From Octopus vulgaris (taxonomy: Eukaryota), in contig OX597820.1 of the NCBI GenBank assembly GCA_951406725.2, forward strand, positions 95,666,001 to 95,730,000: a DNA stretch of 64,000 nt. Direction: 5' to 3'. Numbering within the stretch: the first letter of the stretch is position 1; each line of letters opens with the position of its first letter. The translations under genes were made by a program, and so were the position numbers. This document shows, piece after piece, positions 12,037 to 59,327 of this stretch. Under the pieces are notes generated by a model that saw only the letters and a program-made list of their open reading frames with translations, was not told the origin of the DNA and searched no databases.

Positions 12037-12770
12037 ATTTTAAAAAGGATTGACATAACTTTTCACAAAGGTATACCGTCAGGACGATTGTATTCGATTG
12101 TAATAGATATTTTATTGGTTGAACGATATTTCAACAGTAAGTTCAAAAGAAGGGATAAAATTCAAAATTGTAGAAATTTAAATGTAAAGTATGAACGAGA
12201 GCAACCAGCGTCCACAGTTGATGGAATGACACCATCAATCTTTAAGTTTAAATCCATTGGCCCAGGATTGGGTTCAACACGGGGGTATAACATAATTAAC
12301 AGGGCTGACTTTCTTTAGACACCTGGCTGCTTTGGTAACTTCCAGAATTTCTATATGATCCAATTCTTATTCGGTGAAGCATAAAATGAATCATCTCAAT
12401 CTTGATTTTGATATTTTATAAAGGATTGAAGTAACTCTTCACAAAAGTAAACAGTCAAGACGAAGAGCACGATTCGATTGCAATAGATATTTTATTAGTT
12501 GAACGACATTTTAACAGTAAATCTGTCTTTGTCAAAATCAAAGTAAAAAGTGATAAATATTCAAAATCATAGAAATGTAATTGTGAAGTATGAACGAGAT
12601 CCACTTTAAATCCTGAGCCAATGGACTTAAACTTAAAGACTGATGATGTCATTCCCTCAACGTGTGGACGCTGGTTGCTCTCGTTCATACTTTACATTTG
12701 AATTTCTGAAAGTTTGAATTTTTATCACTTCGTATTTTGAACTTGACAAAGATAGACTTACTGTTGAAAT
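12037..12770. repeat. Direct-plus-inverted repeat element between (TAA)n tracts
   Basis: 12037-12200 is repeated directly at ~12414-12599, and ~12127-12268 is repeated inverted at ~12610-12771. Confidence 0.82.
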
Positions 12771-13459
12771 ATAATAATAATAATAATAATAATAATAATA
12801 ATAATAATAATAATAATAATAATAATAATAATGATAATGATAATAATAATATGGCAGTGTTTTTAGCGCATCGGACAAAATTATTCGCAGTAATTGCTAT
12901 GTTCCTCTGCAAACTGAGTTGAGATCCGGCTGAGGTCAACTTCATCTTTCGTCCTTCGAGGGTCGATCAATTAAAAAAACAATGAAATACGTACGATTAA
13001 TGTTATTTGATGTATGATCATCTTCCCCTTGTGTTGGAAATCAACATTAATTTACACGAAATGTAGTGAATTAGATATAATTAAATAACCGTTGTTTGCA
13101 GATTTGTTCGGATAACTACATAAAAGTGCCGACCAACTAAATTATCGCGAATTATACAGAGCTTCAACTCGTTTCCATGGTGAAAAATATATTGTATTGA
13201 ACCTATCTACAATTAGGTGAACTGAGCCATACACACACACACACACACACACACACACACACACACACACACACACACACACACATATACATACATAATT
13301 GTTTGTGATTAATCTATATTTTTGTTATTTTTCATTTGTCGTGCTCGCTTACGTCTCTGGTGTGCTAAATTTTCCGAGGAACAATTCTTAGTGGTTGACA
13401 CCATAGCGGATCTTCTAGCATAAGGGTTTCCACATAGTGGTTAAGAAATTCCCTCATAT

Positions 13460-14002
13460 TTATGTATATATATATATATATATATATATATATATATATA
13501 TATATATATATATATATATATATATATATATATGTATATATATATATATATATATATATATATATATATATATATATATATATATATATATATATATATA
13601 TATATATATAATATACATATGCATATATGTATATATATATACATAAACATATGCACATATGTATATATATACATATGCATATATATATATATATATATAC
13701 ATATGCATATACATATATATACATATGCATATATATATACATATGCATATATATATATATATATGCATATATGTATATATATATACATAAACATATGCAC
13801 ATATGTATATATATATATATTCATATGCATATATATATATATATATATATATATATATATACATATGCATATACATATATATACATATGCATATATATAT
13901 ACAAATGCATATATATATATATATATATATATATATATATATATATATGCATATACACACATATATATACATACACATACACACACACACTCACACATAT
14001 AT
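13460..14002. repeat. (TA)n / TATGCA-CA complex microsatellite
   Basis: Seen directly. Contains a repeated acataaacatatgcacatatg block. Confidence 0.95.
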
Positions 14003-14093
14003 ATTCCCATATTCTGTCCATATCACCTATGAACCTAATATAAGAATTTATATTCTGTATTAAAAATGAAAAAAAGAGAAACAAACTACTTAC

Positions 14094-14234
14094 AGATATT
14101 GAAGTGTCGCTACTTTCTGACATAAATCATCAGGTAGGGCTTCGATTGCAGCTCTATCAAATTGTATGATCGTTAATCTATGACTCCCCGTCAAATCCGG
14201 AAAAACTGTCTGTTGGTCAGCCTTTGAAATGACT
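14094..14234 (-). CDS. LGR5-like: Double-LRR exon (141 bp) of type-B LGR
   Basis: ttccag| ... |gtaag. Encodes [46 protein letters not shown](L). FPDLTG is characteristic of LGR4/5/6, and DRAxI...P..LC resembles rickets. Confidence 0.93.
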
Positions 14235-15439
14235 CTGGAAATACAGAAATAAATGTATTTATTGTGTTGTAATTTAATAATGTTTGCGGAGTTTAAACAT
14301 AGTTATTAGAACAGGTATGAGTAATCTTTTTCGAGAAATACGTCACATGAGACATCAATCATCATAATACGGGCTGCATTACAAAAAATTTCAGTTGACA
14401 GTAATCTTTTCGTTAGGCGTGTCATTCAGAAAGTCCCGCAGGCCGTTATTTCCCACAGATCTGGATTAGGACACTCTACATTCCCTTTAATGGGGGTGGG
14501 TGGATTTGTAGTATAGTTAGAGCTTTAGATAAAATGCTTGACTTTATTTAGAAAGGACAGTGGTAGTGGTATTAATAAGACTTGGAAGTTGGACACGGCA
14601 AGAGTGGTATGAAAATGAGACACGATCAGACTGGGAGTGTCTGGGCAATTCAGTAGGAGTCTAGTTAGCTCCAAGGAGCAAAGATCATTATAGAAAAGAC
14701 AGAAAAGGTACAGAGGGAGAGAGAGGGAAGAGTGAGACGAGAGACAGCTCGTTTGAGGGCTAGAGCCTGGAGCATATTTGTAAATGATTTATGCTAATCA
14801 GTTAGATGGTATCTTCTCTAGATACGGTCTACAATGTCTGTATATACAACACCTGCACTGTCCAAAAACTGAGCGTTTCTTTAATGACATAATAGCAACA
14901 AAGCACATACATTCAATATTGATGTCACACAAAGGAGTTGCAAAACAATATGAGGAATGTGCGATCACACACAAACCACGGACACACACACACACACACA
15001 CACACACACACACACACACACATATATATATATATATATATATATATATATATATATATATATATATATATATACTGTATGTGTGACAAACAAGAGCAGG
15101 AAATAAATAATACAGATTAAAAAGTTAGTAGAAGCAACAAATGCGAAAAAAAAACGTCCCTATAGGAGTGAGAGACCACCACTTAAGAAGAACAATTCAC
15201 GCCTACCATCATTCCGCTCCGGTTGCGTAACGTAAACTGGTTTATTAGGGCTTGCTTGTGTTCTGTTTAAGATGTTGGTTTAATTTTAGTCATTTAGTCA
15301 TTTGATCTTAGTTATTTAGTCGTTTTGTGTAATCACCACTTATTTTTCTTTTAATTAGTGAAATAGTCCTGATGACTCCCAACCCACCGTATAGTTCATT
15401 CAGCATTTGTATCAGTACTCATTATTGATCCGGGTAACC

Positions 15440-57360: not shown

Positions 57361-57470
57361 ATAATCAAAATAAGCAATAAGGATATCCAGAGGTAAAGCA
57401 GTATGATCGTTTCATGTGACTCCATTTATATACATTACCTCTGGATATCCTTGTTGCTTATTTTGATTGT
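57361..57470. repeat. Hairpin element in (TA)n
   Basis: aatcaaaataagcaataaggatatccagaggtaa pairs with ttacctctggatatccttgttgcttattttgatt. Confidence 0.88.
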
Positions 57471-57702
57471 AATCAACCCATTTTGAATTATATGGATAAT
57501 ACCACATTAAATTCTGGTGCATTTAACTTAAGTATCATATTCAACTGAATCTAAAATTTACTAAACTTATATATATATATATATATCCTTTGCGTAAAGA
57601 GTTCTCTCTTATTCCTTGTATTAGTGTTTTTTCAACTCTTTGTTCTTTAAGTGCCAAGCCCTATATATATATATATATATATATATATATATATATATTT
57701 TT

Positions 57703-57814
57703 TTACATTATATATAGGGGCTTAGTAAAATAAATTACTTTGCCACATACTGAACTCATGAGTTCAGTATGTGGCAAAATAATTTATTTTACTAAGCCCT
57801 TATATATAATGTAA
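57703..57814. repeat. Near-perfect ~110-bp palindrome
   Basis: ttacattatatataggggcttagtaaaataaattactttgccacatactgaactca|tgagttcagtatgtggcaaaataatttattttactaagcccttatatataatgtaa. Confidence 0.92.
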
Positions 57815-58916
57815 TATTTTGAATTCGCCTAAAATGGTCCCTTTACATACTGAATACTTGGTGAAATTGATTAATAATTAATTAATTTTACCCTCAATTG
57901 TTGAAATTATATATATATATATATATATATATATATATATATAACTGAAACATGTTATAATGTATATATAAAAATTAAAAATTGTATAATATAGCAGCAT
58001 TTTCGAACTTCATTTTTTACAAATATATATATATATATATATATATATATATATATGCATGTATGTATATGTGTATGTATGTGTGTGGACATGTCTGTGT
58101 GTGCGTGTGTAACCTGAGAGCTTGATGTTACTAGCATATACTACTACAATCAGCACTGCTTCATTCCTCTTATATCTCTCGGTATTTCTGTTTCAATGTT
58201 TAAGAGAGAGGAAGATACAGAGAGAGAGAGAGAGAGAGAGAGAGAGAGAGGGGGGGGGGAGAAAGAGAGAGAGAGTGAGAAAAGAAAGAAAGAGAGAAAG
58301 ATTGATACCGCTACTATATTTCAAATTGCTGTCTATATTTTCTTTCTTGACAGAGTGCAGAATGTGCTTGAGGGAAATTTGTCAGTTATTTCTCAAAGTA
58401 AGGTGATGAATAACGATCTATATGGTTTTTTTGTGAGTTCGTTTGAAAATTCATGAATATAAAGCGAATATACATAAAAACATAATATACACACGTATAT
58501 CATTATATGAGTGTATGTGTATAAACGCACACACAGAGGCATATAAACATACATACATATAAATTATATATATATATATATGCATGTATGTTTATTTTGT
58601 GTTTGTTTATATAGAATGACCTTCAGCATAGTTAATACGTATATAGTTAATATACATACACATGCACACACACATACATATATATGCACATATATATATA
58701 TATATAAAGGGCAAGTTTACGAAAATAAACAAAAGACGAAGGCAGGTAGTGTACAAACAAACAGATGTATTAGTATAGCGCTCAGGAATAGAAAAAGTCT
58801 TTTACGTTTCGAGCCTACGCTCTTCTATAGAAAGGTACACAGAAAAAACAAGGAGAGAAAAAATATGTGTAGTAGCTAACGATCTATCATTGCGTATATA
58901 TATATATATATACTAC

Positions 58917-59082
58917 ATTAAAAAGCAGCAAAAATATCACAAAACCTGTTAATCAGAGTTTCACATTCCCATTCGTTGGACAGATTCAGAATTTTGTTTA
59001 GAATTCTAAACAAAAGTGTGCGAGGAATGGGAGCGTGAAACTCTGAGTAACAGCTTTTGTGATAATTTTGATGTTTTTTAAT
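58917..59082. repeat. Palindromic element with degenerate hammerhead halves
   Basis: atcacaaaacctgttaatcagagtttcac pairs with gtgaaactctgagtaacagcttttgtgat. Confidence 0.82.
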
Positions 59083-59327
59083 AAAGCATATTACTCTACC
59101 TCTGGTATTGGAGTACTATTTTTCCACCTTGTTTCGCATTTATGTGTTTACTCTGGTATATATATACATATACATACATAATATGTTCATATTAATACAT
59201 TAATACTAAATTTGATAAATGCGAAGTCGAACACGAAACATAAGTTACTGTGACGTATTGACTAAAAACTTAACACTCTCACACAGACGAGTATGGCTAT
59301 GTGTGTCTGTGTGTGTGTGTGTGCGCG

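Follow-up and report, generated by a model that had tools for sequence, protein, structure and literature searches.

The 64-kb window, i.e. the whole stretch of DNA that was analysed, contains several short elements, unrelated to one another in sequence, which end in type I hammerhead motifs with predicted self-cleavage. The population of hammerhead elements announced by the original prediction holds in part, since four of its eleven cores are complete (at 19171 on the minus strand and at 21000, 45559 and 49353 on the plus strand), six are decayed and one, at 40145, is false. The three cores that it had described as complete, 19127-19177(-), 20994-21044(+) and 49346-49411(+), were all recovered by strict or score scans, and a fourth complete type I core, which it had placed among the degenerate ones, occupies 45554-45599(+).

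The first two of these cores belong to the inverted arms of a single element, the left arm (19110-19195, minus strand) running into (TA)n and the right arm (20976-21130, plus strand) continuing into (AT)n with a tail of ~69 nt that is missing from the left one. Over 81 nt the left arm and 20981-21061 show 100% identity, and the shared motif combines a 6-bp stem I and a 4-bp stem III with a weak 3-bp stem II containing a U.U at 10.1/11.1. Similarly built, the element at 48941-49576 has arms 89% identical to each other: the left one (48941-49246, minus strand) preserves the hammerhead's 3' half (49190-49219), with ~84 nt of extra tail into (TA)n, and the right one (49346-49576, plus strand) holds the complete hammerhead, with a GAUC loop 3 and a bulged stem I, and also runs into (TA)n. 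The element at 45322-45652, hereafter the 45.3-kb family, comprises an inverted copy of the family 3' tail (45322-45400, minus strand) with a ~30-nt extension (45322-45352) missing at the right end, a tRNA-type head (45449-45502, plus strand), which the original prediction had missed, the complete minimal type I hammerhead (45554-45599, plus strand, C3 at 45559) and the 3' tail with short 9-nt repeats (45600-45652, plus strand). This hammerhead has a 6-bp stem II, an extra A following A9 and an ACGU palindrome, with the cut predicted after 45594.

The remaining elements carry decayed cores. Three of them are two-armed. At 33041-33331 the left arm (33041-33193, minus strand, C3 33178) retains CUGAUGA and GAAA beside a decayed stem III, and the right arm (33207-33331, plus strand, C3 33222) has an intact CUGAUGA, a G12-to-A change and a partly retained palindromic stem III, the arms being 77% identical. 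At 39300-39574 a minus-strand left arm with intact core (C3 39541), decayed stem I 3' strand and ~50 nt of extra tail into (CA)n faces a plus-strand right arm (39687-39909, C3 39720) that has lost stem II and GAAA in a 19-nt deletion and conserves stems I and III and the GUC site. The third pair, 78% identical, combines 58908-58995 (minus strand, C3 58979) with 59000-59157 (plus strand, C3 59020), each core having two changes and the right arm extending ~66 nt further into (TA)n. Single elements lie at 21426-21487 (plus strand, C3 21449, into (TA)n) and, between (TA)n tracts, at 31853-32058 (minus strand, C3 31974) and 58703-58893 (minus strand, C3 58830); the last two are short and bear decayed minimal hammerheads with two core changes each. 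The minimum free energy fold of the 31853-32058 element is a different hairpin, not a hammerhead.

Comparison with shuffled sequence gave a divided answer. The strict descriptor found 3 loci in the window (2 independent sequences) against a mean of 0.1 and a maximum of 1 in 30 local dinucleotide shuffles, and the score scan returned 2 matches of at least 14 against none in 12 shuffles, missing 19171/21000. Relaxed descriptors allowing 2-3 core mismatches stayed at chance level (7 vs 3.5, maximum 8, and 7 vs 6.4), and decayed cores are therefore not significant singly. Their support is comparative and comes in all six cases from the opposite arm or from another element of related sequence. Thus, the arms of 33041-33331, 39349-39909 and 58908-59091 retain complementary parts of the motif, the 21449(+) core, in which position 7 is missing and position 17 is a G, resembles the 39541 element (alignment score 49.5), and 31974(-) and 58830(-) are related elements with the ACGU palindrome in common and a stem I pair swapped from G-C to C-G, the sole candidate for a compensatory stem change seen between elements. 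The list of degenerate cores stands to this extent, with 45559 proving intact and 40145 coding. Rfam returned no hammerhead at gathering score in the window; none appeared among the 150 of 289 rows listed by E-value, a list filled by microsatellite-miRNA matches, and local Rfam scans found none either. Folding energy did not separate the cores from shuffles, their MFE z-scores being unremarkable. Other candidates were discarded: the 12037-12770 fold-back has no credible core, those at 26333-26428, 43600-43787 and 57703-57814 have no core, and the additional score-scan matches at 7702 and 31809 had no supporting context that we could see, context being read at 7702 only.

All six two-armed elements are inverted with their 3' ends outward, which bears out the inverted arms noted at the outset. 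Five of the six have a one-sided tail, as judged by eye and, for 45322-45352, at the family level, 33041-33331 being ambiguous; tandem hammerheads on the same strand were not found in the window among the matches listed. The claimed association with microsatellites was also upheld: a (TA)n/(CA)n tract lies within 300 nt downstream of 13 of the 15 core positions, a set that includes 40147 and in which paired arms are not independent, as compared with 26% of random points. One exception is the 45.3-kb copy, which is not within a microsatellite, its 45559 core being 881 nt from the nearest such tract. Craig et al. (2021, PMC8557442) described truncated insertions of Penelope-like elements (PLEs) that carry an inverted copy and, on one side, a short extension. 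Cervera & de la Pena (2014, PMC4209133) attributed opposite-strand pairs of minimal hammerheads 100-700 bp apart to truncated PLEs, noting in these motifs palindromic 15.2-16.2 and an additional base following A9. The anatomy of arms and tails in the window matches these truncated PLE insertions and not retrozymes, so that the retrozyme-like label first given to the set has to be dropped.

The proposed link to PLEs finds support in this inverted, one-tailed anatomy and in a coding remnant. A frameshifted PLE ORF remnant, with the linker and C-terminal GIY-YIG endonuclease, was delimited at 38056-38497 (plus strand) by phmmer, tblastn and alignment; it has 143 phmmer matches, and 7 of the 10 long ones scanned contain both RVT_1 and GIY-YIG. 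Judged by these relatives it is a real PLE, as had been anticipated for ~38.2-38.5 kb. A second linker fragment of a PLE ORF (40069-40208, plus strand) aligns with 38056-38191, upstream of the endonuclease, and is 79% identical over 57 nt to 38111-38167; the 40145 pseudo-core is formed by its Leu-Lys-Arg codons, and this candidate was rejected as a hammerhead. Some 100 nt past the stop of the first remnant, 38589-38625 (plus strand) may be a hammerhead relic, with CUGAAGA, 10/11 of the closing stem and no centre; it is a weak case, since comparable pairing is reached by 2 of the 36 CTGANGA sites in the window. Apart from this relic at 38600, the 38.06-38.50 kb remnant is a good match to none of the hammerhead elements of the window. 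The reverse transcriptase (RT) remnant reported at 3.1-4.0 kb could not be confirmed: what we take to be the RT motifs can be followed in order by eye, and there was no Pfam match in three minus-strand frames. A tblastn search with 138 PLE relatives gave no match there, and neither did an L1 profile or the profiles built on 41 and on 19 PLE proteins; as the PLE queries are all relatives of the 38-kb element, a remnant of another PLE clade may still be present. Scans of metagenome and viral contigs did not find an autonomous PLE sharing its 3' end with any element, nor did the exact 29-nt pattern of the 45.3-kb family match there; none of 111 stretches from the PLE protein scan of metagenome contigs was confirmed, and the 19 candidates that a word search retrieved with the endonuclease fragment all failed to score. 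The window also contains remnants of RTE and L1 type, and the best named relative of the L1-type ORF, at 65%, comes from Argonauta hians, in keeping with the cephalopod origin originally ascribed to the set.

Copies elsewhere were compared for the 45.3-kb family, to which any statement on core constancy applies. It is short (~270 nt), non-coding and dispersed between unlike flanks (agreement 0.42-0.46), and in public contigs its summed depth is ~5-12 x 10^4 times that of the flanks (up to 3.9 million vs 55-75 in run X1; 4.4 million vs 37 in run X14), depth not being equal to copy number; the depth edges, like the loose ends, fall at 45322 and 45652. The large genomic population originally envisaged is thus backed by contig depth for this one family. 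The CUGANGA/GAAA core is fixed in the family, and stem covariation is not seen, the stems in public contigs being simply invariant; a 5-bp stem I forms when the majority letter is taken at each position. CpG decay aside, the 5' core varies at position 7 only among the listed differences (A to T, 64%, in X1; T 67% and C 15% in X14). This confinement of subfamily variation to a free core position suggests that the ribozyme mattered in source copies. The other core changes are of CpG type, at 8-13%, and affect G12 and the palindrome; as these mutate at the CpG rate, the genomic copies themselves show no selection.

Upstream of the hammerhead, the A box is exact at 45456-45466 relative to the tRNA-type consensus quoted in PMC8969392, and a B box matching at 10/11 positions with 33 nt spacing occurs in family contigs from 45500 (16 in X20, 5 in X17 and one bridging contig in X1), being broken by a partial deletion in the window copy. 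Neither ARAGORN nor Rfam called a tRNA in the window copy of the head, which shows a modest likeness to another SINE head (equalled in 6/2000 shuffles; 73/2000 and 93/2000 for two others). The inverted tail is joined to the tRNA start (45442-45451) in 8 of the 15 joints listed, out of 127, with 7 breakpoints. In many copies the shared sequence continues for at least 70 nt ahead of the head (agreement ~0.8, with loose ends before 45407), a feature at odds with simple initiation by Pol III, and one contig class joins tail directly to head (45646 to 45442, depth 248). Family contigs are present in two runs that we guess to be RNA, contigs being no gauge of transcription or cleavage.

Known PLE pseudo-LTR hammerheads (PMC4209133, PMC8557442) resemble those of the window in the type I layout, the extra base after A9 and the short palindromic stem III, in the many unrelated families per genome, in pairs that lie on opposite strands some hundreds of bases from each other, and in the inverted truncated copy, one-sided tail and (TA)n targets. 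They differ in that the window tails measure 30-85 nt as compared with the 30-40 reported, two window families have a true 4-bp stem III and no window element is tied to a full PLE ORF. The Schistosoma Sm-alpha/Sj-alpha repeats (PMC6765202) are likewise short, abundant and non-coding, with a type I hammerhead downstream of a promoter of Pol III type, and by analogy Sm-alpha is a precedent for the promoter-hammerhead coupling in the 45.3-kb family; however, they are tandem repeats described with an active canonical ribozyme, whereas the 45.3-kb copies have a minimal core and inverted tails of PLE type that begin at the tRNA head. The tRNA-derived SINEs of octopus (Ohshima & Okada 1994, cited in PMC4758252) share the tRNA-type head, high copy number and likely host group, and could include the 45.3-kb family; the citation through which they are compared mentions no hammerhead or PLE link. 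In the literature searched we found no description of PLE-type hammerhead ends in octopods, nor of a SINE pairing a tRNA-type promoter with a hammerhead and copied by Penelope machinery.

On this evidence the elements of the window are probably sequence-unrelated short elements with terminal type I hammerheads, likely the 3' ends (pseudo-LTRs) of PLEs, among which 45322-45652 represents a high-copy, non-coding family with a tRNA-type promoter, likely a SINE copied by PLE enzymes. Non-autonomy, originally attributed to the whole set, is supported for the 45.3-45.7 kb family only; the remaining elements may be 5'-truncated ends of coding PLEs. A chance origin of the motifs in MITE-like fold-backs and AT-rich DNA is very improbable. 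The relaxed scans, the silence of Rfam, the false call at 40145 and the coreless fold-backs would suit it, but the strict and score scans exceed shuffles, unequal arms with one-sided tails are unlike terminal inverted repeats, and for 45559 it is already contradicted by the core fixed in the family data.

Animal non-LTR retrozymes (PMC7229834; bioRxiv 10.64898/2026.07.22.740005) are also short, non-coding, hammerhead-bearing and thought to depend on PLEs, from whose pLTRs they derive (bioRxiv 10.64898/2026.07.22.740005). The set could accordingly stem from retrozymes or Sm-alpha-like tandem units, with master arrays cut by the hammerhead into monomers that are circularised and reverse-transcribed by PLEs, the tRNA module serving as internal promoter. 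The direct tail-to-head join and the common sequence upstream of the head, which fits a longer tandem unit, speak for such an origin, as do the tandem units of Sm-alpha, in which a Pol III promoter precedes the hammerhead. We nonetheless regard it as unlikely: retrozymes are defined by tandem hammerhead units and circular RNAs and described as lacking promoters (PMC7761336), whereas the copies in the window stand alone or inverted, with a promoter in one family, no hammerhead is repeated in the same orientation among the matches listed in the window, the listed joints are dominated by inverted one-tailed copies, and the majority of the cores are minimal or decayed. The tails of many LINE-dependent SINEs end in short repeats. 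The right end of the 45.3-kb family stops in 9-nt repeats, its window copy lies outside a microsatellite, RTE- and L1-type remnants occur in the window and octopus repeats are dominated by SINEs (PMC8967140), all of which would be expected of an ordinary tRNA SINE mobilised by LINEs that captured a PLE end once, the hammerhead being a passenger and the inversions incidental. This is somewhat less plausible still, given the PLE marks left by the inverted tail-head joins at 7 breakpoints and the ~30-nt one-sided extension, and the restriction of subfamily variation to the free core position.

If the elements are PLE ends, published PLE biology suggests that the GIY-YIG endonuclease would nick AT-rich DNA, that the RT would prime at the nick on the 3' end of the RNA with synthesis mostly ending early, and that a second truncated copy would be placed inverted, with a short extension at one end. 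The 45.3-kb family would be transcribed by Pol III as head, linker, hammerhead and tail. Its minimal ribozyme would be a poor cutter as a monomer, needing to dimerise through the ACGU palindrome, and uncut RNA would therefore survive as template; once inserted, copies would decay neutrally.

To find a hammerhead population is in itself no surprise, minimal hammerheads from truncated PLEs having been reported by the thousand across animals. It is an evenly balanced matter whether octopods harbour a SINE that numbers tens of thousands of copies, unites a tRNA promoter with a minimal hammerhead and the tail of a pseudo-LTR, is mobilised by PLEs rather than LINEs and bears PLE insertion scars, beside numerous further families of hammerheads, of which some may have non-standard cores (C4, U6). 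SINEs are defined as passengers of LINEs. If the proposal is true, the PLE-scarred tRNA-promoter element would be a natural minimal substrate of PLE enzymes (~270 nt with its own promoter), the RNA features recognised by the PLE RT and the role of a poorly cleaving pLTR hammerhead would become testable, and a portion of the large octopus SINE complement would have been misattributed to LINE partners.

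Four hammerhead cores in the window, each named by the position of its C3 and its strand, are complete and above chance, namely 19171(-), 21000(+), 45559(+) and 49353(+). The first two, identical in sequence, match together with 45559(+) a strict type I descriptor, for which 30 local dinucleotide shuffles of the window gave a mean of 0.1 and a maximum of 1 match. A score-based scan tolerating a bulge gave 15 for both 49353(+) and 45559(+), with none of at least 12 in 12 shuffles, and missed 19171/21000 because a U.U pair closes their stem II; at threshold 8 it returned 6 matches versus 0.67 in shuffles, three of them absent from the original prediction. 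Excess over shuffled sequence was thus seen in the strict and score scans but not in relaxed ones, since counts with 2 or 3 core mismatches allowed were inside the shuffle range (7 versus 3.5 and 7 versus 6.4), and the decayed cores therefore need other support. Rfam searches of the window yielded no hammerhead match at gathering score or among the matches listed by E-value, and the folding energies of the cores are ordinary.

Arm-to-arm alignments revealed that decay is complementary between paired arms. At 39.3-39.9 kb both cores are kept in the left arm, and the right arm, with stem II and GAAA gone, still has a 6-bp stem I, stem III and a GUC site. In the 33.0-33.3 kb pair CUGAUGA is present in both arms, GAAA in the left and most of a palindrome in the right. 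Each arm at 58.9-59.1 kb has two changes in the 5' core and preserves GAAA, stem III and the UA site. Two single elements, 31974(-) and 58830(-), are relatives that retain stem II and ACGU and in which one stem I pair is swapped between G-C and C-G; 21449(+), similar to the 39541 element, is the weakest of the decayed cores. Core position 4 is C instead of U in three cores of two families (31974(-), 58979(-) and 59020(+)), which may represent a family-level CCGANGA variant; the next base shows CpG-type decay in one of them. U occupies core position 6 in 58830(-) and in 55011(+), a hammerhead-like candidate beyond the predicted list (55000-55066(+)) with one core change, a long stem II, a palindromic stem III and a weak stem I.

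Of the 11 cores originally predicted, the one at 40145 proved false, since 40069-40208 matches 38056-38191, which directly precedes an endonuclease domain, and reads as Penelope-like element (PLE) coding sequence. On a PLE profile 40069-40208 alone reached only E 0.11, so the rejection relies on its location and on the alignment at the DNA level. The predicted GIY-YIG remnant at ~38.2-38.5 kb is well founded, with 143 relatives of 38181-38411 at E 0.001 or better and both RT and C-terminal GIY-YIG in 7 of the 10 long relatives scanned, and the RT remnant proposed at ~3.1-4.0 kb went undetected by Pfam, tblastn and two PLE profiles. A broken RTE-type RT remnant (36973-38100(+)) has the PLE fragment at 38056 joined into it. 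A putative hammerhead relic lies at 38600, ~100 nt past the PLE stop, but 2 of the 36 CTGANGA sites in the window show pairing of this quality.

In all six two-armed elements (19110-21130, 33041-33331, 39300-39909, 45322-45652, 48941-49576 and 58908-59157) the 3' ends face outward; the arms are 77% to 100% identical, and in five of the six one arm extends for another 30-85 nt before its flank begins, as judged by eye in all but the 45.3-kb element. The predicted proximity to microsatellites is upheld, 13 of 15 core positions having a dinucleotide tract no more than 300 nt downstream versus 26% of random points, a count that includes 40147 and in which paired arms are not independent. Among the matches listed no core is repeated on the same strand in the window, and the retrozyme-like assignment fails on tandem structure as retrozymes are defined in bioRxiv 10.64898/2026.07.22.740005, PMC7229834 and PMC7761336. 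PLE insertions are described as 5'-truncated, with a neighbouring copy in inverted orientation, a one-sided tail of 30-40 bp and a preference for (TA)n (Craig et al., PMC8557442), and minimal hammerheads as thousands of heterogeneous motifs per genome, with opposite-strand pairs 100-700 bp apart, an extra base after A9, a palindromic stem III and cleavage that is slight unless they form dimers (Cervera & de la Pena, PMC4209133). The population is another instance of this known kind, mostly ordinary PLE relics. We infer that nicking of AT-rich DNA by a PLE endonuclease, priming on the RNA 3' end at the nick and early truncation followed by an inverted second copy would account for all six fold-backs; families other than that at 45.3 kb may be truncated coding PLEs or non-autonomous elements. 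At 20976-20999(+) and 19172-19195(-) TAG with upstream pyrimidines marks the 5' edge of stem I, the arms diverging shortly upstream; in Drosophila Penelope, the 5' end of helix I is where the intron terminates (PMC4209133).

Other repeats accompany these elements. The complex fold-back at 12037-12770, with direct and inverted parts between (ATA)n tracts, has no credible core and was rejected as a hammerhead element; it may be a PLE insertion of hammerhead-less type. Fold-backs at 43600-43787 and 57703-57814 look MITE-like and lack hammerhead cores, and 43850-44870 is by eye a decayed Tc1/mariner-like transposase region. Between duplicated microsatellite-rich flanks lies a 5'-truncated L1/Tx1-type RT ORF (22700-25032(+); 672 aa open stretch, RVT_1 and zf-RVT). 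This ORF (22.7-24.7 kb) has its best named relative in Argonauta hians (65%), which favours an octopod host, and the repeats resemble those of Octopus. Dispersed SINE-like families, with copies 78-96% alike and tRNA-type heads in some, occur at 8900-9305, 28171-28601 and 62743-63152; at 25660-25840, 30220-30563, 38856-39193 and 62257-62642; and at 31489-31641.

The 45.3-kb family (45322-45652) combines a tRNA-type head, a hammerhead and a tail. Contigs of four public runs (two DNA, two guessed RNA) were aligned to 45250-45800, giving 19,467, 17,515, 1,914 and 891 records. In run X1 summed depth was 55-75 in the flanks and 3.9 million over the hammerhead, and the corresponding values in X14 were 37 and 4.4 million; it is no copy number and is therefore taken only as 10^4 to 10^5. 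Boundaries are sharp at 45322 and 45652 and the flanks unalike; an X14 flank contig with another organism code suggests that this insertion is older than a species split. Stem I has 5 pairs with the family majority letters. Position 7 is the only part of the 5' core that varies among the listed differences of at least 8%, and this restriction to a free position suggests selection on source copies; CpG-type changes at 45586/7 and 45591/2 reach 8-13%, and the loss of G12 at the CpG rate suggests no selection on inserted copies.

An exact A box lies upstream of the hammerhead (45456-45466). The window copy lacks ~35 nt, and family contigs carry a B box (10 of 11 letters, 33 nt spacing) and a TAA-repeat linker; both boxes fit the Pol III consensus as quoted in PMC8969392. 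A second B-box-like stretch is found at 45537-45545(+), just upstream of the hammerhead. Neither ARAGORN nor Rfam called a tRNA in the head; when it was aligned with the heads of other SINEs in the window, 6, 73 and 93 of 2000 shuffles reached the score. The inverted tail is joined to 45442-45451 in 8 of the 15 joints listed (127 in total), at 7 different breakpoints, so the head-tail link recurs at several independent loci; one further contig class has a tail-to-head tandem join. Against a simple SINE count the at least 70 nt upstream of the head common to many copies and a head depth of about one quarter of that of the tail. The family would be transcribed by Pol III, its hammerhead would cleave weakly as a monomer and its RNA would be copied in trans by PLE proteins. 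A Pol III promoter combined with a hammerhead is already known in Schistosoma (PMC6765202). Among the matches listed, full-text searches yielded no account of octopus hammerheads or of a tRNA SINE with PLE-type insertions; the PMC8557442/PMC4209133 supplements, Repbase/Dfam and Ohshima & Okada 1994 may already contain these families. The passages of PMC8967140 and PMC4758252 on octopus SINEs and Penelope say nothing of ribozymes. Overall, the original observation is confirmed in part and its interpretation supported in part, and one abundant tRNA-headed hammerhead family is worth following genome-wide.
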